Of a stretch of DNA of 64,000 bases, positions 39,953-59,824 are shown piece by piece. Numbering within the stretch: position 1 is the first letter of the stretch; the number at the start of each line of letters is the position of its first letter. The position numbers and the translations under genes were made by a program. The notes under the pieces were generated by a model, which searched no databases, was not told the origin of the DNA, and saw only the letters and a program-made list of their open reading frames with translations. Source of the DNA: Escherichia coli (GTDB lineage Bacteria; Pseudomonadota; Gammaproteobacteria; Enterobacterales; Enterobacteriaceae); NCBI RefSeq assembly GCF_003018235.1, contig NZ_CP027437.1. One strand, given 5' to 3'.

Positions 39953-40825
39953 TTACCAGCGACCGGACGCGCCGCCACCGCCAGAAGAACCGCCCCCGCC
40001 GCTAAATCCGCCGCCACTTGAGCCGCCACCGGAACCGCTGTTGTCTGAATGATAACTTCTACCAGATGCTTTTTTCTGAAGTACACATAAACAGGTAAAG
40101 ACCATAATGGTGGTGAAAGTAAAAAAGAAGAAAAATACAGCAATGGAAAAAGTTTTATCGGAGAACAGGAATAAATCTAAAAGATAGATTGCTGAAATAC
40201 AGACACTGCTTTTACATGCGCGACAAAAATTACTGCCTTGATGAAAAAACCAGAAAGGGAAGAACATCACTGCAAATACCCAAAAAATAGCAAAGTAGTA
40301 ATGATCGCTGGAATACGCTGATTCACTTTCTGAAGGATTAGCCGAATATTGGTGTTGTGAAGTGAGTTGGTTATTTAAAGCGATTATAGCTAACTCTAAT
40401 CCCTTAGCTAATTTTTGTTGTTTAAATGCGGGTATCATGTTGCTACGGATGATATCTCCAGCCAGAGCATCGGTTACCTTTTCTTCCAGCCCATAACCTA
40501 CCTGGATGCGGACAGCACGATCCGACAAGGCAACAATGATCAGTATCCCATCATTGCGTTTGGCATCTCCTAAACGCCAATTGTTAAAAACCCTTGTAGC
40601 ATATTGTTCAATTGTCTCGTCTTTGGTTGTGGGAATAATTAATACAGCAATTTGTACTTGGGTATTATTGAAAATAGATTCTAACTTCCGCGTCAGTTCT
40701 TTCTTTTCTTGTGAGTTTAAGCTACTCGTAAGATCCGTAACTTGTTGCTGTAATGATGGGACAATAGTTGGTTGGGCTGCAACAAAGGAACACACGAATG
40801 TAAACATTAGTATGAAATAGCGCAT
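39953..40825 (-). CDS. ygcG: TPM-domain membrane protein with a Gly/Ser-rich C-terminal tail
   Basis: Track ORF of 313 aa; start placed at [11 protein letters not shown]... (about 290 aa) giving a signal peptide; TPM/phosphatase-like domain, TM segments and a [22 protein letters not shown] tail. Confidence 0.8.
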
Positions 40826-41118
40826 TATAAATTTCTCATTAAATCTGGATAAATAAATTGACGGCGGCATCGGTAATTTGAGATTCGTTATCATTAAAAA
40901 CGAACACAGAAAAAATAAATATAAATTTGGTGAATGTTTTTGACATGATTAAATCCCTTTACTTTATTTATTTCTGACATAATACGTTACTCCCTTTTAT
41001 TATTAACGATCTGTTTCTCATTTTTCTTTAAACCTGCCTGTAACAGAATGTTAATAAGACATGATTGTTGTGGCAGGATCTGCAATAATTAACAATTATC
41101 CACTTCACAGAGAATGCT

Positions 41119-42129: not shown

Positions 42130-42438
42130 GAGTTCCCCGCGCGAGCGGGGATAAACCGGCCGTCGCCGGATCAGCCTGGCTATGCCAGCAGAGTTCCCCG
42201 CGCCAGCGGGGATAAACCGGACGAACAAAATAAAAACCAACTGAATGATGCGAGTTCCCCGCGCCAGCGGGGATAAACCGCGAACCCTTGAACCGATAAG
42301 GGCGCTGTTTTGGAGTTCCCCGCGCCAGCGGGGATAAACCGGATAGGTGTTACACATATGACCTGGCACTGGCGAGTTTCCCGCGCCAGCGGGGATAACC
42401 ATTCAGGTATGTTCAGGCCGGGCAGTTTCCCGCCCGGC
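42130..42438 (+). CRISPR. Orphan CRISPR array with type I-E 29-bp repeats (5 repeats, 4 x 32-bp spacers, plus a degenerate terminal unit)
   Basis: Repeats GAGTTCCCCGCGCCAGCGGGGATAAACCG at 42130-42158 (one C-to-G change), 42191-42219, 42252-42280, 42313-42341, and a degenerate 42374-42401; spacers at 42159-42190, 42220-42251, 42281-42312, 42342-42373. A further partial repeat-like GTTTCCCGCCCGGCC lies at 42425-42439 within a GC hairpin. No cas gene occurs in the window. Confidence 0.9.
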
Positions 42439-42447
42439 CTTCCTCAC

Positions 42448-43925
42448 TTACGCATTCGACCAGCTCTGGATCGAATCCGCATTCCCCAATTCCCCATGCA
42501 TCACTTCATACGATTTTTTCAGGATTACATCAGTATGTTTGGTTAACTCCTTGAAAATGCTTTTATTCATCGCGTCGTAGCGTTTGGCACTGTTCTCAAC
42601 AGGCATAAAGATATCTTTCACGCGAACCATTTTGTCGACAGCCGTTGCGTAATCCGGGTATAGCCCCAGACCTACCGCCGTATTAATCGCTGCCCCCAGA
42701 CTTGCACAACCATTAATGGCGTTACGGCGTGCCGGAAGGTTGAACACGTCGGCAAAAATCTGCATAAACAGATCGCTGTTCGAACCGCCGCCAGTAATGA
42801 TCACATGCTTTGCAAAGTGATTCATTTCATTACACATATTGTCGTAATTGTTCTTCAGCGTCAGGCCACGCTTTCCAGTATCGAACGATATATCCATGCG
42901 TAATCCATGCTGGAATCAAAGCCAATCATAATCCCGCGTTTGTACGGTTCCCACGGATTGGTCAGCCAGTCCAGCACCGTCATCAGACCATTACAGCCTG
43001 GCGGCACACAAGACGCTTTTTTGTTGAGCAAATCTTCCGGTGAAAGATCCTGTGCTTTGGCATCCTGAATTAACGACTCGCCTAACATGTCGCGTAGCCA
43101 GCTCACCGTCCACATGCCTTTGCGAATACCGTAACCTTCATACAGCAAGGTTTGCGGAATAGAAGACATAATCGGCCAGTACGCTACCGGATCTTTCGGT
43201 AGTAATTTGCCGTTCATCATCAACGCGATGTAAGTGCCAAGAGAAATTACCGCAGTTTCATCATCCAGTAACCCGGCTCCCAGTGCTTCTACCGGTTTAT
43301 CACTGGTGGTACAAACAACCGGCAGCCCAGCCGGGAAATGTGTCGCCAGCGCGGCTTGAGGAGTGATATGCCCAAGAACAGTGCCCGGCATTTGCACATC
43401 AAACAGCATATGACGGGGGATATTAAACTTCTCCATGACTGCGGCATCTTCACTCCATGCCCAGGTCTTATAATCCACCGGCCACTGACCAAAATAGTTG
43501 GCGATATTGTCTTTAAACTCGCCGGTTAAGCGATGCGTCAGATAACCTGAAAAAGAGGTGACATATGCCACGTCAGGATTCGTATGTTCGTAAGGGCGTG
43601 TAACGCGTGCATCCTGCCAGCTAATCAACGGCGCAGCTGGCGTGCCATCGGCTTTCAATAACGCACGGCAGCAACGGATGGATCCCAGACCAATACCGAC
43701 AATATCTTCTTTATTCCCGGCAAACTGACTCATCAAATCGTGACCGGCAAAACATAATGATGCCCATAAATCGTCGTCAGGATGTTCTGCGGTATCGGCA
43801 TCTGGCGTGTGCATCGGCTGCAATAAGCCTTTGCCTTCGCAAACCACATTACCTTCCAGATCATACATCACCACTTTTGTGCTCTGACTTCCGCCATCAA
43901 TCCCTATGATGTATTTTTTCGACAT
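42448..43925 (-). pseudogene. ygcE: FGGY-family sugar kinase split by an apparent frameshift
   Basis: N-terminal 354 codons (42861..43925) and C-terminal 149-codon ORF (42448..42897) are in different frames. The N-frame ends ...AWIYRSILESVA-stop and the other frame continues ...LTLKNNYDNMCNE...ITGGGSNSDLF, both matching conserved FGGY kinase regions, so the switch lies near 42861-42867 (GGCC run). Confidence 0.7.
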
Positions 43926-43951
43926 GATTTTTCTCCTGTAATTTTCTGGAC

Positions 43952-45229
43952 TTACTTGCTGCTAGCCATAGCAGGGGCGCTATCAGCAGTACGAATTTTT
44001 TGGAACAGCAAAAAGGTAAAGACGATCACCATGGCAAGCGCCGCCATGCCCATCAGCCACATATTGCGGTAGGCTTCTGCAGCGGGCAGGGTGTCTTGCC
44101 AGTAGCCGATAATCGGGTAAACGAAGACATCCGGCAGGAATCCAATCACCGAACAAATACCTACCGTGGTGCCCATAATGTAAGACGGTGTTCTCGCTTC
44201 GCCAGGGCAGGCCCAGTACAGCCCGCGTGAGGCGTAACAGGTGAATCCCAGCAGTAAAATCAGGCCAATCCCCATCGCGACCGATTGCGGGTTAGAGTTC
44301 GTGACGAGCAGGGCAGTTAACGCCAGCAAGCCGAGTACGGAAAGGATTTGGATCACGCGGGTAGGGGATTTCACTTTGCTGTAAGTGGTGATAATGCCGC
44401 CAAGCGGACCGCACAGTGCGCGGAAGATTTTGTTGATCACAATCCCCATGTAGCTCGCCGCCACCAGCGACATACCGTACATTTCGGTCAGATAGTTGGT
44501 GGAGTAACTCAGAATGGCGTAGATGGTGAAGACACCAAAAATCACCATGCTGCAATACCAGGTGGTGCTGATGCGCAAAACGGCCAGGATGTCGCTAAGC
44601 TGGAATGACTGTTTTTCTTCGTTATTGGTATTGCGTAGGTTGTTGTTATCGCTAACAAAAAACCAACACAAAATGCCCAGCAGAATGTAAACCACACTAT
44701 AGATAATAATGACCGTTTTCAGGCTGGCGCTGTCATCCGGTGCAAAGCGAGAAAAGACCCACATGGTAAACACCGCCAGCGACATTACACCGACGCCGCG
44801 CAGCCCTTCCATCCAGCCCATAATTTTCCCTTGCTCGCTATGATCGCCCAGCAACGATGCGGCTTTAATCGACACCGACCACAGCATTAAAATCGTCGTT
44901 ATCGCAAAGGCGACCTGAATACAGAGCATTACCCACAGCGGTGGATATGTTGCCATTAACAGACCCAGTAATCCGGTAATGATCATCGCGGAAGTAATCA
45001 TTTTGCGGTGTGAAAATTTATCGGCAATAACGCCGCTGGGGGCATAAAGAATAATAGCCGCAATACCAAAGGTACTCATTATTAAACCTATCTCGGTATT
45101 GCTGAATCCCATAAATTTCGCCATGGGAATTTGATAAATATAACGTAAATAAGCCAGGTCGAAACTAACGCCGCCGCTAAAACTAATTATCGCGAGGGTT
45201 ATCCAACGGCGATATGAGTTGTGTTGCAT
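43952..45229 (-). CDS. yqcE: MFS transporter
   Basis: 425-aa polytopic membrane ORF in the same orientation as ygcE. Confidence 0.85.
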   Translation of the reverse strand: MQHNSYRRWITLAIISFSGGVSFDLAYLRYIYQIPMAKFMGFSNTEIGLIMSTFGIAAIILYAPSGVIADKFSHRKMITSAMIITGLLGLLMATYPPLWVMLCIQVAFAITTILMLWSVSIKAASLLGDHSEQGKIMGWMEGLRGVGVMSLAVFTMWVFSRFAPDDSASLKTVIIIYSVVYILLGILCWFFVSDNNNLRNTNNEEKQSFQLSDILAVLRISTTWYCSMVIFGVFTIYAILSYSTNYLTEMYGMSLVAASYMGIVINKIFRALCGPLGGIITTYSKVKSPTRVIQILSVLGLLALTALLVTNSNPQSVAMGIGLILLLGFTCYASRGLYWACPGEARTPSYIMGTTVGICSVIGFLPDVFVYPIIGYWQDTLPAAEAYRNMWLMGMAALAMVIVFTFLLFQKIRTADSAPAMASSK

Positions 45230-45547
45230 ATCGTATTCCCATTTGTAATAGACAAAAAAAAGAGAAAAGTAAGCCGCCCTTTCAGGTGGATTACTTTTCT
45301 CAGGTCTCTAGTAATTGCAATAAGAAATAACATGGAAAGTAGTGGTGTTGTGTGAGAGTAATCACGCTTCTGCTTTTTAAAATTATTTGACAATTCGAAT
45401 ATCACACTGTGATTACGATCACATTAGCGATTATGCCCTTATGATAAAAATTATCTCCAGTTACCAGAGATAATGAGAAAGGTAACTTCCCTCTCGCGGG
45501 GGAAGTTACCTTTCTTTTTTTTTGCCTTACGGAAATTGGAGCTAACT

Positions 45548-46333
45548 ATGTCAATCGAATCTCTCAATGCGTTCTCAATGGATTTTTTCTCCCTGAAAGG
45601 TAAAACCGCAATTGTTACCGGCGGGAATAGCGGTTTAGGCCAGGCATTTGCCATGGCGCTGGCCAAAGCAGGCGCAAATATCTTTATTCCAAGCTTCGTT
45701 AAAGATAACGGTGAAACAAAGGAAATGATTGAAAAACAGGGTGTTGAGGTGGACTTCATGCAGGTGGATATCACCGCAGAAGGCGCGCCGCAGAAGATAA
45801 TCGCCGCCTGTTGCGAACGTTTCGGTACCGTCGATATTCTGATTAACAATGCCGGTATTTGTAAGCTGAATAAGGTGCTGGACTTCGGTCGTGCCGACTG
45901 GGACCCGATGATTGATGTGAACCTGACCGCCGCATTCGAGTTAAGCTATGAAGCTGCAAAAATTATGATCCCGCAGAAAAGCGGTAAAATCATTAATATC
46001 TGTTCATTATTCTCTTACTTAGGTGGACAATGGTCACCTGCATATTCTGCCACTAAACATGCTCTTGCCGGGTTCACCAAAGCTTATTGTGATGAACTAG
46101 GTCAATATAATATTCAGGTAAATGGTATTGCTCCGGGATATTACGCTACCGATATCACTCTGGCGACCCGTAGTAATCCAGAAACTAACCAGCGCGTTCT
46201 TGATCATATTCCGGCAAACCGTTGGGGCGATACTCAGGATTTAATGGGCGCAGCCGTATTCCTCGCAAGTCCGGCATCGAATTATGTCAACGGACATTTA
46301 TTAGTGGTTGATGGCGGTTATTTAGTGCGCTAA
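45548..46333 (+). CDS. ygcW: Short-chain dehydrogenase/reductase (SDR)
   Basis: Start placed at MSIESLN... (261 aa); Rossmann motif TGGNSGLG and catalytic YxxxK (YSATK). Confidence 0.85.
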   Translation: MSIESLNAFSMDFFSLKGKTAIVTGGNSGLGQAFAMALAKAGANIFIPSFVKDNGETKEMIEKQGVEVDFMQVDITAEGAPQKIIAACCERFGTVDILINNAGICKLNKVLDFGRADWDPMIDVNLTAAFELSYEAAKIMIPQKSGKIINICSLFSYLGGQWSPAYSATKHALAGFTKAYCDELGQYNIQVNGIAPGYYATDITLATRSNPETNQRVLDHIPANRWGDTQDLMGAAVFLASPASNYVNGHLLVVDGGYLVR

Positions 46334-46402
46334 TCCATAACGGTGGTTTCTGTTTTCTCTTATTAATGATTATTCCATTTTTATTATCAGGAAGGAATTA
46401 CT

Positions 46403-47857
46403 ATGTCTTTATCTCGCGCAGCGATTGTCGACCAGCTAAAGGAAATTGTTGGTGCAGATCGCGTAATTACCGATGAAACAGTATTAAAGAAGAACAGTAT
46501 TGACCGTTTTCGCAAATTTCCGGATATTCATGGCATTTATACTTTGCCGATTCCGGCAGCGGTCGTAAAACTCGGTTCCACAGAACAAGTATCCCGTGTG
46601 CTGAATTTTATGAATGCGCACAAAATTAACGGTGTGCCGCGTACCGGTGCTTCCGCTACCGAAGGTGGGCTGGAAACCGTTGTGGAAAACTCGGTGGTGC
46701 TCGACGGCTCTGCCATGAATCAAATCATTAATATTGATATTGAGAATATGCAGGCCACGGCGCAATGCGGAGTTCCGCTGGAAGTGCTGGAAAACGCGTT
46801 GCGTGAAAAAGGTTACACCACGGGGCATTCTCCGCAGTCAAAGCCGCTGGCGCAGATGGGCGGCCTGGTAGCAACCCGCAGTATCGGGCAGTTCTCCACA
46901 CTCTACGGCGCAATCGAAGATATGGTCGTTGGTCTGGAAGCAGTATTGGCTGATGGCACCGTAACACGCATTAAAAACGTACCACGCCGCGCGGCAGGCC
47001 CGGACATTCGTCACATCATCATCGGCAACGAAGGTGCATTGTGCTATATCACTGAAGTAACTGTGAAAATCTTTAAGTTCACCCCGGAAAACAACCTCTT
47101 CTACGGCTATATCCTGGAAGACATGAAAACCGGCTTCAACATCCTGCGTGAAATCATGGTGGAAGGGTATCGTCCGTCGATCGCTCGTTTGTATGACGCT
47201 GAAGATGGCACCCAACACTTCACCCATTTTGCTGACGGAAAATGCGTGCTGATCTTTATGGCTGAAGGTAACCCTCGCATTGCGAAGGCGACGGGCGAAG
47301 GGATTGCTGAAATCGTGGCACGTTACCCGCAATGCCAGCGAGTGGACAGCAAGCTGATCGAAACCTGGTTTAACAACCTGAACTGGGGACCGGATAAAGT
47401 GGCCGCTGAACGTGTGCAGATCCTCAAAACCGGCAACATGGGCTTTACCACCGAAGTGTCCGGCTGCTGGAGCTGCATCCACGAAATCTACGAAAGCGTT
47501 ATTAACCGTATTCGTACCGAGTTCCCGCACGCCGACGACATCACCATGCTGGGCGGTCACTCCTCTCACAGCTACCAGAACGGCACCAACATGTACTTCG
47601 TTTACGACTACAACGTTGTTGACTGTAAGCCGGAAGAGGAAATCGACAAGTACCACAATCCGCTCAACAAAATCATCTGCGAAGAAACCATTCGCCTCGG
47701 CGGTTCGATGGTGCACCACCACGGTATTGGTAAACATCGCGTTCACTGGAGCAAACTGGAACACGGCAGCGCGTGGACGTTGCTGGAAGGTCTGAAAAAA
47801 CAGTTCGATCCTAACGGCATTATGAATACGGGTACTATCTATCCGATTGAAAAATAA
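46403..47857 (+). CDS. ygcU: FAD-linked oxidase (FAD-binding PCMH-type domain)
   Basis: 484-aa ORF resembling glycolate oxidase GlcD / alkyl-DHAP synthase-type flavoproteins. Confidence 0.88.
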   Translation: MSLSRAAIVDQLKEIVGADRVITDETVLKKNSIDRFRKFPDIHGIYTLPIPAAVVKLGSTEQVSRVLNFMNAHKINGVPRTGASATEGGLETVVENSVVLDGSAMNQIINIDIENMQATAQCGVPLEVLENALREKGYTTGHSPQSKPLAQMGGLVATRSIGQFSTLYGAIEDMVVGLEAVLADGTVTRIKNVPRRAAGPDIRHIIIGNEGALCYITEVTVKIFKFTPENNLFYGYILEDMKTGFNILREIMVEGYRPSIARLYDAEDGTQHFTHFADGKCVLIFMAEGNPRIAKATGEGIAEIVARYPQCQRVDSKLIETWFNNLNWGPDKVAAERVQILKTGNMGFTTEVSGCWSCIHEIYESVINRIRTEFPHADDITMLGGHSSHSYQNGTNMYFVYDYNVVDCKPEEEIDKYHNPLNKIICEETIRLGGSMVHHHGIGKHRVHWSKLEHGSAWTLLEGLKKQFDPNGIMNTGTIYPIEK

Positions 47858-47950
47858 TGTGTGAGGCAGCGTTCCGCTATGACGGGGCGTTGCCTTTTCG
47901 GCTTCTCAGGCGAGAAGCCGTTCTTATTACCGGACAATGAAGGGGTAAAG

Positions 47951-49288
47951 ATGAACACTTCACCGGTGCGAATGGATGATTTACCGCTTAACCGTTTTCA
48001 CTGTCGAATTGCTGCGCTCACTTTCGGCGCGCACCTGACCGACGGTTATGTTCTCGGCGTCATTGGTTACGCCATTATTCAGCTTACGCCCGCCATGCAA
48101 CTGACGCCGTTAATGGCGGGAATGATTGGCGGCTCGGCGCTCCTTGGTTTGTTTCTTGGCAGCCTGGTTCTTGGATGGATCTCCGACCATATTGGTCGGC
48201 AAAAAATCTTCACCTTCAGCTTTTTGCTGATTACGCTCGCTTCGTTTTTACAATATTTTGCCACCACGCCAGAGCATCTTATAGGACTACGCATTTTGAT
48301 TGGCATTGGTCTGGGAGGCGATTACTCAGTAGGTCACACTTTGCTGGCTGAATTTTCTCCGCGCCGCCATCGCGGTGTTTTGCTGGGCGCGTTCAGCGTG
48401 GTGTGGACCGTAGGCTATGTGTTAGCAAGTATTGCCGGACATCACTTTATTAGCGAAAGCCCGGAGGCCTGGCGCTGGCTGCTGGCATCGGCAGCTCTGC
48501 CCGCGTTGTTGATTACGTTATTACGCTGGGGAACGCCAGAATCGCCACGCTGGCTACTGCGCCAGGGGCGTTTTGCAGAAGCTCACGCTATCGTGCATCG
48601 CTATTTTGGTCCCCATGTTTTACTGGGCGATGAAGTGGCAACGGCGACCCATAAACACATCAAAACCTTGTTCTCTTCGCGCTACTGGCGGCGCACAGCG
48701 TTTAACAGCGTCTTCTTTGTCTGCCTCGTAATCCCATGGTTTGTGATTTATACCTGGCTGCCAACTATCGCCCAGACTATTGGACTGGAAGATGCGCTGA
48801 CTGCCAGCCTGATGCTTAATGCGTTGTTAATTGTGGGCGCGCTGTTGGGATTAGTTCTGACGCACCTGCTGGCACATCGCAAATTTTTGCTGGGAAGTTT
48901 TTTGCTGCTGGCGGCAACGCTGGTCGTGATGGCCTGTTTGCCTTCCGGCAGTTCATTAACGCTGCTGCTTTTTGTTCTCTTCAGCACCACCATTTCGGCA
49001 GTCAGTAATCTGGTGGGCATTTTGCCTGCGGAAAGTTTTCCTACTGACATTCGCTCGCTGGGCGTCGGTTTTGCCACCGCCATGAGTCGACTTGGCGCGG
49101 CGGTAAGTACTGGCCTGCTGCCGTGGGTGCTGGCGCAGTGGGGAATGCAAGTCACCTTATTGCTCCTGGCGGCAGTGTTGTTGGTTGGTTTTGTTGTGAC
49201 CTGGCTATGGGCACCAGAAACCAAAGCACTCCCGCTGGTGGCGGCGGGAAATGTAGGAGGTGCGAATGAACATTCTGTTAGCGTTTAA
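47951..49288 (+). CDS. ygcS: MFS transporter (sugar porter-like)
   Basis: Start placed at MNTSPVRMDD... (445 aa); 12-TM profile. Confidence 0.85.
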   Translation: MNTSPVRMDDLPLNRFHCRIAALTFGAHLTDGYVLGVIGYAIIQLTPAMQLTPLMAGMIGGSALLGLFLGSLVLGWISDHIGRQKIFTFSFLLITLASFLQYFATTPEHLIGLRILIGIGLGGDYSVGHTLLAEFSPRRHRGVLLGAFSVVWTVGYVLASIAGHHFISESPEAWRWLLASAALPALLITLLRWGTPESPRWLLRQGRFAEAHAIVHRYFGPHVLLGDEVATATHKHIKTLFSSRYWRRTAFNSVFFVCLVIPWFVIYTWLPTIAQTIGLEDALTASLMLNALLIVGALLGLVLTHLLAHRKFLLGSFLLLAATLVVMACLPSGSSLTLLLFVLFSTTISAVSNLVGILPAESFPTDIRSLGVGFATAMSRLGAAVSTGLLPWVLAQWGMQVTLLLLAAVLLVGFVVTWLWAPETKALPLVAAGNVGGANEHSVSV

Positions 49289-50045
49289 AGCCGAACCGGA
49301 TGCCGGAATGCTGGCGGAAAAAGAGTGGCAGGCGGCGGCTCAGGGTAATAGCGGACCGGATGTTTCGCTACTGCGAAGTTTACTCGGTGCTGATGAACAG
49401 GCTGCCGCCGCGCTGCTGTTGGCGCAGAGAAAAAACGGTACGTCGATGTCTTTAACCGCGTTGAGCATGGGGGATGAACGGGCGTTGCACTGGCTGCGCT
49501 ATCTCATGGCTCTTGGGTTTGAGGAAGCTGTATTGCTGGAGACGGCGGCAGATCTGCGCTTTGCGCCGGAATTTGTCGCTCGCCATATTGCCGAATGGCA
49601 GCGTCAGAATCCGCTGGATCTGATAATTACCGGCTGCCAAAGCAGCGAAGGGCAGAATGGGCAAACGCCATTTTTGCTGGCGGAAATGCTGGGCTGGCCC
49701 TGCTTCACCCAGGTGGAGCGTTTCACTCTCGACGCGCCGTTTATCACCCTCGAACAGCGTACTGAACATGGGCTGCGCTGTTGCCGGGTTCGCTTGCCTG
49801 CGGTGATTGCCGTGCGTCAGTGCGGTGAAGTGGCCTTGCCAGTACCGGGAATGCGTCAGCGAATGGCGGCGGGGAAAGCAGAAATTATCCGTAAAACTGT
49901 TGCTGCCGAATCGCCAGCGATGCTGTGTCTGCAACTGGCAAGAGCAGAGCAACGACGCGGAGCGACGCTGATTGATGGGCAAACGGTAGCAGAAAAAGCG
50001 CAAAAGCTATGGCAGGACTATTTACGCCAAAGGATGCAGCCATGA
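49266..50045 (+). CDS. ygcR: Electron transfer flavoprotein beta-subunit-like (FixA-like)
   Basis: About 259 aa; ETF beta-like sequence; the 3' end overlaps the ygcQ start. Confidence 0.85.
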   Translation: MNILLAFKAEPDAGMLAEKEWQAAAQGNSGPDVSLLRSLLGADEQAAAALLLAQRKNGTSMSLTALSMGDERALHWLRYLMALGFEEAVLLETAADLRFAPEFVARHIAEWQRQNPLDLIITGCQSSEGQNGQTPFLLAEMLGWPCFTQVERFTLDAPFITLEQRTEHGLRCCRVRLPAVIAVRQCGEVALPVPGMRQRMAAGKAEIIRKTVAAESPAMLCLQLARAEQRRGATLIDGQTVAEKAQKLWQDYLRQRMQP

Positions 50046-50902
50046 ATATCGCAATTGTGACAATAAATCAGGAGAATGCCGCAATAGTGAGCTGGCTGGC
50101 AGAACAGGATTTCAGCGGTTGTACCCTGGCACACTGGCAGATTGAACCTCAGCCCGCTGTGGCGGAACAGGTACTGGATGCGCTGGTGGAACAGTGGCAG
50201 CGAACGCCTGCGGACGTTGTTATCTTTCCGCCGGGAACGTTTGGCGATGAACTGTCGACCCGGCTGGCCTGGCGTTTACATGGTGCAAGCATCTGCCAGG
50301 TGACTTCGTTAGATATTCCAACCGTAAGCGTGCGCAAATCCCACTGGGGAAATGCGCTAACGGCGACGCTGCAAACAGAAAAACGCCCGCTATGCCTTTC
50401 GCTGGCACGTCAGGCGGGAGCAGATAAAAACGCCACGTTGCCCTCTGGTATGCAGCAACTGAACATTGTCCCAGGTGCGCTTCCCGACTGGCTGGTTAGC
50501 ATAGAAAACCTGAAAAATGTTACCCGCGACCCATTAGCTGAAGCCAGACGGGTGCTGGTGGTGGGGCAGGGCGGAGAGGCAGATAACCAGGAAATCGCTA
50601 TGCTGGTAGAAAAGCTGGGAGCCGAAGTGGGCTACAGTCGGGCGCGAGTGATGAACGGTGGCGTTGATGCCGAAAAAGTGATTGGTATTTCCGGACATTT
50701 GCTGGCACCTGAGGTGTGTATTGTTGTTGGCGCTTCCGGCGCAGCAGCGTTAATGGCGGGCGTACGCAATAGCAAGTTTGTGGTGGCGATTAATCATGAC
50801 GCCAGTGCAGCGGTATTTTCACAGGCAGATGTTGGCGTGGTTGATGACTGGAAAGTGGTGCTGGAGGCACTGGTGACAAACATTCACGCAGATTGCCAAT
50901 AA
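50042..50902 (+). CDS. ygcQ: Electron transfer flavoprotein alpha-subunit-like (FixB-like)
   Basis: Start placed at MNIAIVTINQ... (286 aa); ETF alpha C-terminal FAD-binding region. Confidence 0.85.
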   Translation: MNIAIVTINQENAAIVSWLAEQDFSGCTLAHWQIEPQPAVAEQVLDALVEQWQRTPADVVIFPPGTFGDELSTRLAWRLHGASICQVTSLDIPTVSVRKSHWGNALTATLQTEKRPLCLSLARQAGADKNATLPSGMQQLNIVPGALPDWLVSIENLKNVTRDPLAEARRVLVVGQGGEADNQEIAMLVEKLGAEVGYSRARVMNGGVDAEKVIGISGHLLAPEVCIVVGASGAAALMAGVRNSKFVVAINHDASAAVFSQADVGVVDDWKVVLEALVTNIHADCQ

Positions 50903-50950
50903 CGTGCAGCCGGATGATCCTGCCTACGGTTCTGGGCTGGGGACTTGTAA

Positions 50951-50983
50951 GCCTGATAAGACGCGTCAAGCGTCGCATCAGGC
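50951..50983. repeat. REP element (inside a small BIME-like cluster spanning about 50903-51020)
   Basis: GCCTGATAAGACGCGTCAAGCGTCGCATCAGGC palindrome between convergent ygcQ and ygcP; flanking GCCGGATG / GGATGTGGCGTGCAGCC motifs are also REP-like. Confidence 0.6.
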
Positions 50984-51049
50984 GCTGAATGTCGGATGTG
51001 GCGTGCAGCCTACAAATCACACCAAATTCAACTTGTTACGATTATCCCG

Positions 51050-51625
51050 TCAAAGCAATTTTTTCGCTAACGTCCAGACCCCGGTATTCGTGGTGGAAAG
51101 CGCCACGACACCTGCGTTAATCGCATTACGCGCATCTTCTTCATCGCACACCAGCCCGCCAGCAATCAGCGGTTGGCGGATTTTCTCCGTTACCCAGCCC
51201 AGCACTTTGGGCATACAGCCAGGCAGGATCTCAATACAATCCGGATTCGATTGCGCAACTTGCTTATCAATGTTGTGAAACGAAATCGAATCAACAATAA
51301 ACAGGCGATGAATACAGAAAAAACCTTCCGCTCTTGCCGCTTTCAGCATTGAGGCTTTGGTACTGATAATGCCGTCCGCCTCGGTCACCAGTTTCAGAAA
51401 CTGAATCACCACTTCTTTGTTCGATGCGCCTTCCAGCAAATCAACATGAATAAAGGCATATTTTCCGGCGTGTTTAATCTTTTTCACGATTTGACTAATG
51501 GTGCAGATATTGCCGTACAACACGGAAATAAACTGGCATTCAGAATCGATTGCCAGTTGCAGGCTGGCATTATCTTTAACGGCAGCAATCACCGGATTCT
51601 GGCGGAGCAGGTGTAAGAGGGGCAT
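51050..51625 (-). CDS. ygcP: GlpP-like glycerol-3-phosphate-responsive antiterminator family protein
   Basis: 191-aa ORF of the GlpP family. Confidence 0.85.
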   Translation of the reverse strand: MPLLHLLRQNPVIAAVKDNASLQLAIDSECQFISVLYGNICTISQIVKKIKHAGKYAFIHVDLLEGASNKEVVIQFLKLVTEADGIISTKASMLKAARAEGFFCIHRLFIVDSISFHNIDKQVAQSNPDCIEILPGCMPKVLGWVTEKIRQPLIAGGLVCDEEDARNAINAGVVALSTTNTGVWTLAKKLL

Positions 51626-51641
51626 AAATTATCCTTATTAT

Positions 51642-51902
51642 TTATCCAAAGCGGTAGGTGATGCCGAATCCGGAAGGCGGATAGCGCCACTGTTGTAGTG
51701 TTGATTCGTCACACAGCAAACGGCAGGTGCCACACTCCAGGCAGCCGCGATAATCAACGCGTAAGTCACCTTCCGGTGTGAGCGAAAAAAGACCTGCCGG
51801 ACAGGCGTTAATCAACCGTTGTACCATCTGACGCTCAACGGAGTCAGCCGGAACAATGTGCGGCGCATCGGCAACGCGCCAGAGATTACGGGCTACAGAC
51901 AT
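51642..51902 (-). CDS. ygcO: Ferredoxin-like protein (FixX-like)
   Basis: Start placed at MSVARNLWRV... (86 aa); Cys cluster CLECGTCRLLC. Confidence 0.8.
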   Translation of the reverse strand: MSVARNLWRVADAPHIVPADSVERQMVQRLINACPAGLFSLTPEGDLRVDYRGCLECGTCRLLCDESTLQQWRYPPSGFGITYRFG

Positions 51903-53164
51903 CGCAGACTCCTGATAACATCGCCCGCCAGATGCCACAGGCCGTGACGACGTAAATGACGCCAGAATAACTGGCGCAGCGATGGAACAGGTTTATCACC
52001 CTGATCCCATAAATCGCGGGAAATATCCTGCATTAACGCAGGCCACGCACGGTACCATCCAGGGCGTTGCAAAAGCGCCGGAACATGCTGATAACGTTGT
52101 AGAACATCCCATAGCAGGCTGCGCTCGACGTTGTGATGATAAAGCGGAAACAGATTTTGCGGCTCGCGGTGCTGGCAGGCGCTTATCAGCGTTTGTGCCG
52201 CCGCCTGTGCGCCAGCCAGCGCCATATCCATACCGCGCACGGAAATTCCGGTATTGACGCAACTGCGCAACGCATCGCCCACCAGCAGCCAGCCGTTACC
52301 GGCGTATTGCACTGGCATACTGTGCAAGCCACCTTCTGGCACCAGATGCGCACCATACTCCAGTGATTCCGTGTTTTTGATAAGCGGGCGCACTGCCGGA
52401 TGCGTTTTAAAGCGAGCCAGCAGCTCGCTTGCCGGAACACGACTTTGCGTAAGGGAAGAGAGCGGGCAAACAATCCCTAACGAGAGCGTTTGTTGATTAG
52501 TATAAAGAAATGCGCCGCCGGGTAAGTCATCACAGATCCTGCCGCTGAACAGCAACGCTGCGCCTTCGTTATTCTCCAGATGAAAACGTTCTTCAATAGC
52601 GGATGTTTCCAGCGACAGCACTTCTTTGATCCCCAACGCCATCGCTTCGCCAGCAGGACGAGTCACTAACCCGTGACGTTCAGCCAGGACGCTGTTGGCA
52701 CCTTCTGCCAGCACCACATAACGGGCGCGGAGAATATCGTCACCACAAATGACACCACACACCCTGCCGTTTTCTTCATACAGCGCATCCACCGTCGCAC
52801 CAGGGATGCATTCGACACCTTCTTTTTCGGCTTCGGCAACCAGCCACGGATCGAACCGTGCACGTAATACACTCCAGGATTCACCGCCGGGCTGTAAGCT
52901 GGAAAACGTCGTTGCGCCATCCGGCGTTAGCAGAGAAAGGCTTTCGTGAGTGATGCGTCGTTCAAGAGGCGCGGTCAGATGAAATTGCGGGAGGAGTTCC
53001 GCGAGTGCATGGGTATATAACCGCCCGCCGGAAAGATTTTTGCTGCCGGGGATTTCAGCGCGTTCCAGTAACAAAACGGATAAACCCGCTCGCGCGCAGT
53101 GTAACGCGCAAGCGGTGCCTGCAATACCGGCACCAATAATAATAATGTCGCAGTCGTCTTCCAT
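51893..53164 (-). CDS. ygcN: FAD-dependent oxidoreductase (ETF-quinone oxidoreductase / FixC-like)
   Basis: Start placed at MEDDCDIIIIGAGIAGTACA... (423 aa) with an N-terminal FAD dinucleotide-binding motif; the 3' end overlaps the ygcO start. Confidence 0.85.
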   Translation of the reverse strand: MEDDCDIIIIGAGIAGTACALHCARAGLSVLLLERAEIPGSKNLSGGRLYTHALAELLPQFHLTAPLERRITHESLSLLTPDGATTFSSLQPGGESWSVLRARFDPWLVAEAEKEGVECIPGATVDALYEENGRVCGVICGDDILRARYVVLAEGANSVLAERHGLVTRPAGEAMALGIKEVLSLETSAIEERFHLENNEGAALLFSGRICDDLPGGAFLYTNQQTLSLGIVCPLSSLTQSRVPASELLARFKTHPAVRPLIKNTESLEYGAHLVPEGGLHSMPVQYAGNGWLLVGDALRSCVNTGISVRGMDMALAGAQAAAQTLISACQHREPQNLFPLYHHNVERSLLWDVLQRYQHVPALLQRPGWYRAWPALMQDISRDLWDQGDKPVPSLRQLFWRHLRRHGLWHLAGDVIRSLRCL

Positions 53165-53241
53165 GTCATGCCCCGGATATCCAGAACACAACACCCTAAC
53201 ATAGCGTTACTTAAGGGAAATTGACCGCCGACATACTCTTA

Positions 53242-53607
53242 TCATTCGCCGCGATAGATGCAACCTGCGGTGCAGGTTTCTTTCACCATAACCGCACTTA
53301 ACAGCGGAACAACCGGTTTAACCTGATCCCAAATCCATTTTGCTAAAACTTCGCTGGTTGGGTTTTCCAGACCTGGAATATCATTGAGATAATGGTGATC
53401 GAGGCGCTCATAAGTTGGCTTAAACGCCGCTTTCAGTTCAGCGAAATCGATAATCCAGCCCGTATGCGGATCGACTTCCCCGGTAATTTCCAGTCGCACC
53501 ATAAAGGAATGCCCGTGCAGGCGACCACATTTATGCCCTTCCGGGACGTGTGGTAAGCGGTGAGCGGCTTCGAAGGTGAAATCTTTAAATAACGTGGTGG
53601 ACATCAT
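53242..53607 (-). CDS. queD: 6-carboxy-5,6,7,8-tetrahydropterin synthase
   Basis: Start placed at [10 protein letters not shown]... (121 aa); Zn-binding His residues and CGRLHGH motif. Confidence 0.9.
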
Positions 53608-53922
53608 AATTTCTCTACAGGACGATAAAACCGCCGTAGAGTACCGGAAAGGCTGTTTTTTCGCATTATCTAAAACGACTTTGTTGCGCAAAATCGCTGA
53701 TTTATCTTAATGATTGGCTAAATTCATTTGTTTTTCATTGGGTTGGTTAATCTGTTTTGTTGTTAAAGACTATTGCTAAAACAGGTTAGTCGATTTGGTT
53801 ATTAGTTATCGCTATCCCGTCTTTAATCCACACCGTTCACCCCGTTAACCTTACCTTCTCTTCTGTTTTATGGGCGCTGACAGGGCGCAGAAACAGCTTT
53901 GCTTACTGGAACATAACGACGC

Positions 53923-55722
53923 ATGACGACACAGGTCCCACCTTCCGCGTTGCTTCCGTTGAACCCGGAGCAACTGGCACGCCTTCAGGCGGCCACGACC
54001 GATTTAACTCCCACCCAGCTTGCCTGGGTTTCTGGCTATTTCTGGGGCGTGCTCAACCAGCAGCCTGCTGCGCTTGCAGCGACGCCAGCGCCCGCCGCAG
54101 AAATGCCGGGTATAACTATTATCTCCGCTTCGCAAACCGGCAATGCGCGCCGGGTTGCTGAAGCATTACGCGATGATTTATTAGCGGCAAAACTGAACGT
54201 TAAGCTGGTGAACGCGGGCGACTATAAATTCAAACAAATCGCCAGCGAAAAACTGCTTATCGTGGTGACGTCAACGCAAGGGGAAGGGGAACCGCCGGAA
54301 GAAGCCGTCGCGCTGCATAAGTTCCTGTTCTCCAAAAAAGCGCCAAAGCTGGAAAACACCGCGTTTGCCGTGTTTAGCCTCGGCGATAGTTCTTATGAAT
54401 TTTTCTGCCAGTCCGGGAAAGATTTTGACAGTAAGCTGGCGGAACTGGGCGGTGAACGCCTGCTCGACCGTGTCGATGCCGACGTTGAATACCAGGCTGC
54501 TGCCAGCGAGTGGCGCGCCCGCGTGGTTGATGCGCTTAAATCGCGTGCGCCTGTCGCGGCACCTTCGCAATCCGTCGCTACTGGCGCGGTAAATGAAATC
54601 CACACCAGCCCGTACAGCAAAGACGCGCCGCTGGTGGCGAGCCTCTCTGTTAACCAGAAAATTACCGGGCGTAACTCTGAAAAAGACGTTCGCCATATCG
54701 AAATTGACTTAGGTGACTCTGGCCTGCGTTACCAGCCGGGTGACGCGCTGGGCGTCTGGTATCAGAACGATCCGGCACTGGTGAAAGAACTTGTCGAACT
54801 GCTGTGGCTGAAAGGCGATGAAACTGTCACCGTTGACGGCAAAACCCTGCCGCTGAACGAAGCGCTACAGTGGCACTTCGAACTGACCGTCAACACCGCC
54901 AACATTGTTGAGAACTATGCCACGCTTACCCGCAGCGAAACGCTGCTGCCGCTGGTGGGCGATAAAGCGAAGTTACAGCATTACGCCGCGACCACGCCGA
55001 TTGTCGACATGGTGCGTTTCTCTCCGGCGCAACTGGATGCCGAAGCGCTGATTAATCTGCTGCGCCCGCTGACCCCGCGCCTGTATTCCATCGCCTCCTC
55101 GCAGGCGGAAGTCGAGAACGAAGTACACGTCACCGTTGGTGTGGTGCGTTACGACGTGGAAGGCCGCGCCCGTGCCGGTGGTGCCTCCAGCTTCCTCGCG
55201 GACCGCGTGGAAGAAGAGGGCGAAGTCCGCGTATTTATCGAACATAACGACAACTTCCGCCTGCCAGCCAACCCAGAAACCCCGGTGATTATGATTGGCC
55301 CAGGCACCGGCATCGCGCCGTTCCGAGCCTTTATGCAGCAGCGCGCCGCTGACGAAGCGCCGGGTAAAAACTGGCTGTTCTTTGGCAATCCGCACTTTAC
55401 GGAAGATTTCCTCTACCAGGTGGAATGGCAGCGCTACGTCAAAGAGGGCGTGCTGACGCGTATCGATCTTGCCTGGTCGCGCGATCAAAAAGAAAAAATT
55501 TACGTACAAGACAAACTGCGCGAACAGGGCGCGGAGCTGTGGCGCTGGATCAATGACGGTGCCCACATTTATGTCTGCGGCGACGCTAATCGCATGGCGA
55601 AAGACGTTGAGCAGGCACTTCTGGAAGTGATTGCCGAATTTGGTGGCATGGACACCGAAGCGGCGGATGAATTTTTAAGTGAGCTGCGCGTAGAGCGCCG
55701 TTATCAGCGAGATGTCTACTAA
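53923..55722 (+). CDS. cysJ: Sulfite reductase [NADPH] flavoprotein alpha-component
   Basis: 599-aa ORF with flavodoxin and FAD/NADPH reductase domains. Confidence 0.95.
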
Positions 55723-57434
55723 TGAGCGAAAAACATCCAGGGCCTTCAGTGGTCGAAGGAAAACTGACAGACGCCGAGCGCATGAAGCTTGAAAGCAACT
55801 ACCTGCGCGGCACCATTGCGGAAGATTTAAACGACGGTCTGACCGGTGGTTTTAAGGGCGACAACTTCCTGCTGATCCGCTTCCACGGCATGTATCAGCA
55901 GGATGACCGCGACATCCGCGCCGAACGTGCTGAACAGAAGCTGGAGCCACGTCATGCAATGCTGTTGCGCTGTCGTCTGCCGGGTGGGGTGATTACCACC
56001 AAACAGTGGCAGGCGATCGATAAATTTGCCGGTGAAAACACCATCTATGGCAGCATTCGCCTGACCAACCGCCAGACGTTTCAGTTCCACGGCATTCTGA
56101 AAAAGAACGTCAAACCGGTGCACCAGATGCTGCACTCGGTCGGTCTTGATGCGCTGGCGACTGCTAACGACATGAACCGTAACGTGCTGTGCACTTCGAA
56201 CCCGTTCGAGTCGCAGCTGCACGCGGAAGCCTATGAATGGGCGAAGAAAATCTCTGAACATCTGCTGCCTCGTACCCGCGCGTATGCAGAGATCTGGCTC
56301 GATCAGGAAAAAGTCGCCACTACTGATGAAGAGCCGATCCTTGGTCAGACCTACCTGCCGCGTAAGTTCAAAACCACGGTAGTGATCCCGCCGCAGAACG
56401 ATATCGATCTGCACGCCAACGACATGAACTTCGTGGCGATCGCCGAAAACGGCAAGCTGGTGGGCTTTAACCTGCTGGTGGGCGGTGGGCTTTCCATCGA
56501 GCACGGCAACAAGAAAACCTACGCCCGCACCGCGAGTGAGTTTGGCTATCTGCCGCTGGAGCATACACTGGCAGTGGCGGAAGCCGTCGTGACAACTCAG
56601 CGTGACTGGGGTAACCGAACCGATCGTAAAAATGCCAAAACCAAATACACGCTGGAGCGCGTGGGGGTTGAGACGTTTAAAGCGGAAGTGGAGCGTCGCG
56701 CGGGGATCAAATTTGAACCGATCCGTCCGTATGAGTTCACCGGACGCGGCGATCGTATTGGTTGGGTTAAGGGCATTGATGATAACTGGCACCTGACGCT
56801 GTTTATCGAAAATGGTCGCATCCTTGATTATCCGGGGCGTCCGCTGAAAACTGGCCTGCTGGAGATCGCGAAGATCCACAAAGGTGATTTCCGCATTACG
56901 GCGAACCAGAATCTGATCATCGCCGGTGTGCCGGAAAGCGAGAAAGCGAAGATCGAGAAGATCGCCAAAGAGAGCGGGTTAATGAATGCCGTCACGCCGC
57001 AGCGTGAAAACTCAATGGCCTGCGTGTCATTCCCGACTTGCCCGCTGGCGATGGCCGAAGCCGAGCGTTTCCTGCCGTCTTTTATCGACAACATCGATAA
57101 TTTAATGGCGAAACATGGTGTCAGCGATGAGCATATCGTGATGCGTGTAACAGGCTGCCCGAACGGTTGTGGTCGCGCGATGCTGGCGGAAGTGGGCCTG
57201 GTGGGTAAAGCGCCGGGTCGCTACAACCTGCATCTTGGCGGCAACCGCATTGGGACACGTATCCCACGGATGTATAAAGAAAACATCACCGAGCCGGAAA
57301 TCCTGGCGTCGCTTGATGAACTGATAGGGCGCTGGGCGAAAGAGCGCGAAGCGGGTGAAGGCTTCGGCGACTTTACGGTGCGTGCGGGCATCATTCGCCC
57401 GGTGCTCGATCCGGCGCGCGATTTGTGGGATTAA
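55722..57434 (+). CDS. cysI: Sulfite reductase [NADPH] hemoprotein beta-component
   Basis: 570-aa ORF; start overlaps the cysJ stop; siroheme/4Fe-4S Cys motifs ([10 protein letters not shown]...CPNGC). Confidence 0.95.
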
Positions 57435-57454
57435 CCATCAGCCCGGTCTTGTAG

Positions 57455-57486
57455 GCCTGATAAGACGCGTGAGCGTCGCATCAGGC
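57455..57486. repeat. REP element between cysI and cysH
   Basis: GCCTGATAAGACGCGTGAGCGTCGCATCAGGC, nearly identical to the REP at 50951-50983. Confidence 0.6.
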
Positions 57487-57507
57487 AAGGCAAACAGTGA
57501 GGAATCT

Positions 57508-58242
57508 ATGTCCAAACTCGATCTAAACGCCCTGAACGAACTGCCGAAGGTAGATCGCATTCTGGCGCTGGCAGAAACTAACGCCGAACTGGAAAAACTG
57601 GATGCTGAAGGCCGCGTTGCCTGGGCGCTGGATAATCTGCCCGGTGAATATGTACTTTCTTCCAGTTTCGGCATTCAGGCGGCGGTGAGCCTGCATCTGG
57701 TGAATCAGATTCACCCGGATATCCCGGTGATCCTGACCGATACGGGTTATCTGTTCCCGGAAACCTACCGCTTTATTGACGAGTTAACGGACAAACTCAA
57801 GCTCAACCTGAAAGTGTACCGCGCTACCGAAAGCGCCGCCTGGCAGGAAGCGCGCTACGGCAAACTGTGGGAGCAGGGTGTTGAAGGCATTGAAAAGTAC
57901 AATGACATCAACAAAGTCGAACCGATGAACCGGGCGCTGAAAGAACTGAATGCGCAAACGTGGTTTGCTGGCCTGCGCCGCGAACAATCCGGCAGTCGCG
58001 CCAATTTACCGGTGCTGGCAATTCAGCGTGGCGTATTTAAAGTGCTGCCGATTATCGACTGGGATAACCGAACGATATATCAGTATCTGCAAAAACATGG
58101 CCTGAAATATCACCCATTATGGGACGAAGGATATTTATCGGTCGGTGATACCCATACAACCCGTAAATGGGAACCCGGCATGGCGGAAGAAGAAACGCGT
58201 TTCTTTGGCTTAAAAAGAGAATGTGGTTTACACGAAGGGTAA
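57508..58242 (+). CDS. cysH: Phosphoadenosine phosphosulfate (PAPS) reductase
   Basis: Track ORF extends upstream through the REP; start placed at ATG 57508 ([14 protein letters not shown]...), 244 aa. Confidence 0.92.
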
Positions 58243-58260
58243 ATGTTATCCGGATAAATT

Positions 58261-58298
58261 AAACGCCTCTGTCAGAAATGATGGGGGCGTTTTTATTT
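58261..58298 (+). terminator. Probable cysH terminator
   Basis: AAACGCC...GGCGTTT stem followed by TTATTTT, about 20 bp after the cysH stop; the stem is short and the loop long, so this is tentative. Confidence 0.4.
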
Positions 58299-58507
58299 TG
58301 CGAGCAGCATTCCTGATTTTAAACGTGAACGCCGCTGGAAGAATCAACAGGTATAGAATGGTGTCGGGTGCTTGAGGCTGTCTGGCGTTAAGCATTCGCG
58401 AGGTTCCAGATGGACAAAAGCCCCAGGCGATATTTCTATCAACCTGAGGCCAGCGTTCGAACCCAAACAATTCGAATGTTAGTCTCTTCTTTGCAGGGAG
58501 GCAAGAC

Positions 58508-58660
58508 ATGCTGACAAAATATGCCCTTGTGGCAATCATAGTGCTGTGTTTTACAGTACTGGGATTCACGCTGATGGTAGGCGACTCGTTGTGTGAGTTG
58601 AGTATCAGAGAACGTGGTATGGAGTTTAAGGCAGTTCTCGCTTACGAATCGAAGAAGTAG
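58508..58660 (+). CDS. hokX: Hok-family type I toxin (small membrane-depolarising peptide), positionally the hokX/sokX locus
   Basis: 50-codon ORF absent from the ORF track (under 60 aa): [50 protein letters not shown], with a single TM helix, the Hok signature DSLCE and C-terminal AYES; Shine-Dalgarno GGAGG 6 nt upstream. The symbol is inferred from position next to cysH. Confidence 0.8.
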
Positions 58661-58786
58661 CCACCACGCGGGGGTAAAACCCCGCGTACTGAATTGTTAA
58701 AGTTTGGCCTCCTGCACCCCTTTTTTATACTCTGTTTCTGGTGGCATTGATTTCCTGCAGGCAAGGGAGTAATCATTTCAAACCCA

Positions 58787-59824
58787 TCAAGACGCCTTCG
58801 CCAGCTCCTTCACCAGCGGTAGCATTATCCGCATAACATCACGGCAGCGACGTTCTATTCTTCCTGGAAGTGCCTTATCAATATGTTGTTGATTATCCAG
58901 TCTTACGTCATGCCAGCTATTTCCCGCAGGGAATGCAGCTGTTTTTGCGCGTTGCTGATAACCATCCTTATTCCCAAGATTCCAATTTGTTGCTTCTACC
59001 GAAAGTACGGCAATACCGGCTTTGTCGAAAACTTCGGCGTCATTACAACAGCCAGTACCCTTCGGATAATTTTTATTCAAACCCGGATTGGTCGTTGCGG
59101 CAATTCCATGACTACGCGCAATTGCCAGCGCCCTGTCGCGCGTTAATTTCCTTACTGCTTCAGGGGTTTTTACGCCGCTGTTGAAATACAATTTATCGCC
59201 AACAATTAAGTTATCGAGATTAATCACCAGCAGCGTATTTTTCTTTTCGGTGTCACTCATCCGCTTGAGTAAATTCTCAGCACCTAATTTCCCTTCCTCT
59301 TCACCACTGGTCGCCACAAATCGAATACCATACTCGGTAGGCGTATTTTTCAGGCGTTCTGCCAATTCCAGCATGACACCTAAACCTGCAGCGTTATCAT
59401 CCATTCCTTGTAACGTCAGTCCGCCGAGATTGGCATCGGCGTCAGCATCGCTCAGCGGGGCGTAAGTATCCAGATGCGCCATAATGATGATCTGCTGCGG
59501 CGCTTTGCCTTCATGAGCGGCAATCACCGTACTTCCCGTCACGTTATGCCAGCTCTTGCGATTATCGCGGGCGGTATAAATATACCGACTATTAAATGTC
59601 CGAATATCACTGCGATAACCCATTTGCTGAAACTGTTGGCGAATATAATCGGCAGATAACATTTCTGCTGGAGTTCCGGTCATGCGTCCCGGAAAGAAAG
59701 TAGCAATATGTCGTGCCTGAGTATTAGCAAAATCGCCAGGTTTAGATGACGAGGCGTGTACGGGGAGAATAAAGCATACGCCGAGCGCCAGGGCAGCGGT
59801 ACGGTGGCGCAATGCGGAAAACAT
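58787..59824 (-). CDS. iap: Alkaline phosphatase isozyme conversion aminopeptidase (M28 family)
   Basis: 345-aa ORF with signal peptide. Confidence 0.9.
   Translation of the reverse strand: MFSALRHRTAALALGVCFILPVHASSSKPGDFANTQARHIATFFPGRMTGTPAEMLSADYIRQQFQQMGYRSDIRTFNSRYIYTARDNRKSWHNVTGSTVIAAHEGKAPQQIIIMAHLDTYAPLSDADADANLGGLTLQGMDDNAAGLGVMLELAERLKNTPTEYGIRFVATSGEEEGKLGAENLLKRMSDTEKKNTLLVINLDNLIVGDKLYFNSGVKTPEAVRKLTRDRALAIARSHGIAATTNPGLNKNYPKGTGCCNDAEVFDKAGIAVLSVEATNWNLGNKDGYQQRAKTAAFPAGNSWHDVRLDNQQHIDKALPGRIERRCRDVMRIMLPLVKELAKAS

Follow-up and report, generated by a model that had tools for sequence, protein, structure and literature searches.

The closest described counterpart of the gene considered here is ygcE of Escherichia coli K-12 (b2776), which encodes an FGGY-family carbohydrate kinase of 492 aa and is part of the gene order yqcE-ygcE-CRISPR array-queE. 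In the intact protein, the best stretch of the Pfam FGGY_N profile covers residues 5-110, and FGGY_C covers residues 226-418 (profile positions 2-196 of 198). Among FGGY kinases of solved structure, the one closest to it in sequence is the autoinducer-2 kinase LsrK (PDB 5ya0), which has the two-domain FGGY architecture in common with YgcE. The literature calls YgcE an uncharacterised sugar kinase, and a whole-word search found no function assigned to it in papers that mention ygcE. YgcE also reaches no NCBIfam equivalog cut-off in a profile search, and its substrate therefore cannot be inferred.

The same synteny is present in the window, by which we mean the whole 64,000-nucleotide stretch of E. 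coli DNA that was analyzed and that is approximately 97-98% identical to K-12. A location with yqcE on one side and the queE-proximal CRISPR array on the other, together with a high identity to the K-12 gene, identifies the orthologue of ygcE on the minus strand, where it occurs as two overlapping ORFs (Table 1). The first has 354 codons (43925..42861), begins with the ATG at 43925 and has the C-terminal end ...AWIYRSILESVA directly before a TGA stop (42863..42861). The second has 149 codons (42897..42448), runs from the ATG at 42897 to a stop at 42448 and contains ...LTLKNNYDNMCNE...ITGGGSNSDLF... in the -1/+2 frame relative to the first. These two ORFs overlap by 37 nt. When K-12 YgcE is used as a tblastn query, residues 1-354 match 43925-42864 with 98.9% aa identity and residues 355-492 match 42864-42451 with 94.2% aa identity, and the two matches are in different frames and abut exactly. 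Thus, both the ORF list and the split tblastn match agree with the initial annotation, which had the kinase frame ending at 42861-42863 and the rest of the protein continuing in another frame.

Table 1. Features of the ygcE locus, with positions numbered from the first nucleotide of the window
Feature	Position	Strand	Basis
yqcE, MFS transporter gene, intact, upstream of ygcE in the same orientation	43952..45229	-	425 aa, 98.4% to K-12 YqcE, no gaps
5' part of ygcE, 354 codons and premature TGA (42863..42861)	42861..43925	-	ORF list, tblastn, Pfam
3' part of ygcE in the original frame, codons 355-492 (42864..42451) and stop (42450..42448)	42448..42864	-	tblastn, Pfam, LsrK alignment
Chance N-terminal extension MDISFDTGKRG of the 149-codon ORF, from the out-of-frame ATG at 42897..42895	42865..42897	-	ORF list
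Site of the 1-bp deletion in ygcE	42864..42865	-	Pairwise and multiple alignments with intact alleles
GCATGGAT-TAC-GCATGGAT direct repeat in ygcE, wild type and intact in the window	42893..42911	-	Alignment with GCA_002546565.1, junction analysis in strain 00-3076

Alignment with intact alleles traces the split to the loss of one base. The nearest intact ygcE is that of strain GMF065 (99.5% nucleotide identity), and the window copy differs from it by seven substitutions and exactly one indel. The base lost between window positions 42865 and 42864 is a G on the coding strand and a C on the plus strand, and it changes GTGGCGCTGACG in the wild type to GTGGCCTGACG in the window. On the coding strand, GTG GCG CTG ACG is converted to GTG GCC TGA. 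Relative to intact orthologues, this indel is not a multiple of three and is followed immediately by a premature stop, as in a frameshifted pseudogene. If any base is inserted between 42865 and 42864, then a continuous ORF of 492 codons results, and the repaired protein has only four amino acid differences from that of GMF065 (residues 445, 446, 451, and 456). Neither half of the gene contains further stops or indels, as judged by alignment with intact alleles and by the repaired translation.

These observations agree with the earlier placement of the frame switch in the GGCC run at 42864-42867, inside which the missing base lies, and with its attribution to a single-base indel. They also agree with the expectation that restoring one base to this run would recover an ORF of full length. 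An 11-bp duplication at ATGGAT...ATGGAT had been considered and dismissed as the cause of the split. This dismissal was sound: the two-copy GCATGGAT arrangement is the wild type and is present in K-12 and GMF065, and the single-copy form belongs to a different pseudogene allele, which occurs in other strains.

Five of the seven substitutions relative to the nearest allele fall within 33 nt on the minus strand (42561-42593), close to the 3' end of the gene, where they give rise to the four amino acid changes at residues 445-456. The 3' 413 nt of the window gene also match other intact alleles at 99.3%. Judged from these alignments, the substitution cluster looks more like allelic mosaicism than decay after inactivation.

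The deletion allele is confined to this strain or its lineage. A 69-nt probe for the allele has no match in the 5,364 complete E. coli genomes in which the ygcE site is present, all of which have the 70-nt wild-type sequence there. The two-frame structure occurs in none of these genomes (0 of 5,364), and wild-type ygcE consists of one ORF. The deletion-spanning pattern is likewise absent from GTDB species representatives, and the deletion allele is found in no metagenome contig, whereas 68 metagenome stretches have the wild-type site. The truncated YgcE falls into a protein cluster (90% identity) that also holds unrelated PfkB sequences named 'aminoimidazole riboside kinase' (P0003 and P0011), which looks like an oddity of database clustering and not biology; these sequences were disregarded.

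The break interrupts the C-terminal domain of the kinase. FGGY_N (PF00370) is recognized in the 354-aa ORF with an E value of 1.4e-19 and 71.1 bits, compared to a cut-off of 28.8. FGGY_C (PF02782) is divided between the two ORFs, such that the 354-aa ORF contains profile positions 2-132 of 198 with 19.4 bits, under the cut-off of 27, and the 149-aa ORF contains positions 134-196 of 198. The complete domain (2-196) is obtained only from the intact allele or after the one-base repair, and neither of the two ORFs contains it. Residues 354/355 correspond to FGGY_C profile positions ~132-134 of 198, which places the break about two thirds of the way through the domain and upstream of the conserved GGGS segment. 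In FGGY kinases, this C-terminal GGGS region contributes to nucleotide binding. In LsrK (5ya0), the counterpart of the YgcE sequence past the break is the conserved core, and the alignment takes in GGGS...Q..ADV. Because the break is inside FGGY_C and the GGGS segment is lost, loss of YgcE kinase activity would be the expected result.

A sequencing or assembly error could have dropped one base from a ygcE gene that is really intact in this strain. The deletion allele is unique among thousands of genomes, as an error would also appear. In addition, the source genome is outside the RefSeq set that was searched, and there is no close relative among those 5,426 complete E. coli genomes, in which the best matches are 99.4% (1-25000) and 98.1% (30001-55000) identical. 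However, the same sequence is recovered in Logan contigs, which are assembled by de Bruijn graph straight from public reads. Contig SRR8930575_161, reported for two samples, has gene calls for exactly the 354-aa and 149-aa proteins of the split gene. This contig ends in CRISPR repeats and is 100% identical to window 42314-50981, with zero differences over its whole 8,668 bp, deletion included. The SRR8930575 assembly indicates that the mutation is present in the DNA and is not an assembly artefact; if it derives from the reads behind the source assembly, then the agreement confirms the deletion in the reads but not in a second isolate. The window is also not prone to indels in general. Across 25 kb that can be compared to the 99.4%-identical genome there are only two single-base indels, both intergenic, and in 42376-58727 the ygcE deletion is the sole coding indel relative to near relatives that is attributable to the window. 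The differences at 49930/49932 belong to the reference strain's own ygcR pseudogene. All 29 flanking K-12 orthologues with matches align free of gaps and stops, and all but ygcG align at full length. General assembly indel noise can be ruled out, since in ~57 kb of the window compared to near relatives the ygcE deletion is again the only coding indel that can be assigned to the window. Homopolymer contraction can also be ruled out, since the wild-type context, GGCGCT, has no homopolymer. The initial annotation had proposed either a pseudogene or a homopolymer error. Of these, the pseudogene is supported by the one-base repair, the 5,364 genomes, and the Logan contig, and the homopolymer error is contradicted by GGCGCT. 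A base missing only from the assembly is improbable.

The split gene might instead remain functional in two pieces, with the 354-aa and 149-aa products reassembling as an active kinase or the N-terminal product having a function of its own. An ATG-initiated ORF does span the entire 3' part and overlaps the 5' ORF, gene callers predict both ORFs, and neither half shows further damage. The absence of further decay is explained equally well by a recent event, however, and the split falls within the FGGY_C fold instead of at a domain boundary. The internal ATG at 42897 has a best Shine-Dalgarno pairing of -3.1 kcal/mol, as compared to -7.4 kcal/mol at the true ygcE start. The split arrangement is present in no other genome and is therefore not maintained by selection. 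A working two-piece kinase is very unlikely given these points. Programmed -1 ribosomal frameshifting could also fuse both frames into one protein, and ribosomes that slipped back by one nucleotide at any point of a 57-nt zone (42918-42862) would go on to make full-length YgcE. This zone has no X XXY YYZ sequence, no half-slippery heptamer, and no homopolymer of at least 4 nt, and no slippery heptamer of the canonical or half-slippery type occurs in 42930-42850. The two-frame architecture is absent from the 5,364 other E. coli genomes and the 68 metagenome copies, and wild-type ygcE is one ORF. Lacking both a slippery site and conservation, programmed frameshifting is ruled out as a conserved feature; it had been deemed unlikely from the outset, and we assign it a negligible probability. 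Finally, the loss of ygcE might not be neutral. GlpK and LsrK are examples of FGGY kinases that bind regulatory partners, and the N-terminal FGGY fragment (with or without the C-terminal piece) might keep a regulatory or binding role, or loss of function might itself be adaptive. Either version of this idea is highly doubtful.

The interpretation that we favor, with a probability of roughly 90%, is that ygcE in this strain is a recent, lineage-private pseudogene that was created by a real 1-bp deletion. Spontaneous loss of one G after codon 354 (GGCGCT to GGCCT) would shift the frame and make an immediate TGA. Translation from the normal start would then end after 354 residues and yield a protein with the N-terminal FGGY domain and approximately two thirds of the C-terminal one. 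Missing from it would be the final 138 residues, among them the conserved GGGS segment. The deletion is probably recent, because both halves of the gene are otherwise free of stops and indels and the protein differs by only 4 aa from that of the nearest intact allele. Loss of ygcE may have been selectively tolerated because the ygc cluster is dispensable. The split gene is an ordinary pseudogene and constitutes a point of annotation, not a discovery. In annotation, the locus should appear as one frameshifted ygcE pseudogene and not as two kinase genes, and the strain should be scored as being without whatever sugar-phosphorylating activity YgcE provides.

The genes around ygcE have several features of their own. 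Between queE and ygcE is a type I-E CRISPR array (42130-42400) that consists of four good repeats, at 42130, 42191, 42252, and 42313, and a degenerate terminal repeat near 42375-42400. The array looks orphaned at the queE-ygcE locus, because there are no cas genes in the 64-kb window. At the location where K-12 has cas3 and casA, the window has cysH, then an ORF of the Hok family, and then directly iap and cysD (58243-58790). This ORF between cysH and iap (50 codons, 58508-58660, plus strand) encodes a type I toxin of the Hok/Gef family. It matches the NCBIfam HokA model with an E value of 9e-16, but the match does not reach that model's cut-off, and its counterpart is annotated as Hok/Gef in TUM14771. 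The yqcG homologue (40839-40980, minus strand) has AAAAA where K-12 has AAAA, and the one extra A breaks the 46-codon frame found in K-12. This broken yqcG looks like a common non-K-12 allele, because its counterparts in GMF065 and TUM14771 are also annotated as 'frameshifted'. The ygcG gene (39953-40894, minus strand), which encodes a TPM-domain protein, has 313 codons as compared to 290 in K-12. It aligns to the K-12 protein at residues 1-262 only, and the Gly/Ser-rich tail at the C terminus differs in length.

Both ygcE and the ygcN-ygcE cluster are dispensable in natural E. coli, because an independent 11-bp frameshift exists and many complete genomes have only a 3' remnant of the gene. 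The 11-bp deletion occurs between the GCATGGAT repeats in GCA_002546565.1 and six more contigs. Its site is 35 nt upstream of the 1-bp deletion, and its product is 361 aa in length (P0013). In approximately 302 of 5,373 complete E. coli genomes (5.6%), all that remains of ygcE is its final ~464 nt. The cause in strain 00-3076 is a deletion of 10.2 kb, equivalent to window 42904-53100, which takes out most of ygcN, the 5' two thirds of ygcE, and everything between them. Its junction connects ygcN codon ~20 (equivalent to window 53101) to ygcE (equivalent to 42903) with a 4-nt TTAC overlap, and the GCATGGAT repeat adjoins this junction. Accessory neighbors are also pseudogenes in near relatives: in TUM14771 this applies to ygcR and cas3, and in isolate 362 to fucR. 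Together, the 1-bp, 11-bp, and 10.2-kb deletions indicate that the ygcN-ygcE cluster has been lost repeatedly in natural E. coli.

The 1-bp loss, the 11-bp deletion, and the 10.2-kb deletion all inactivate ygcE, and they occur within ~40 nt of one another at the ygcE end, but they differ in form. The window allele is a single-base loss without a repeat context, whereas the allele of GCA_002546565.1 is a slippage between 8-bp direct repeats. Strain 00-3076 and ~300 other complete genomes have a large deletion with a TTAC overlap at its junction, unlike the single-base loss in the window. Among characterized FGGY kinases of solved structure, LsrK shares the domain architecture of YgcE but is distant from it, with an E value of 6.5e-29 and a partial alignment. 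The K-12 gene has the same Pfam FGGY_N and FGGY_C content as that copy after the one-base repair. It is intact at the site where the window copy is without one G after codon 354, which leaves a truncated or split protein.
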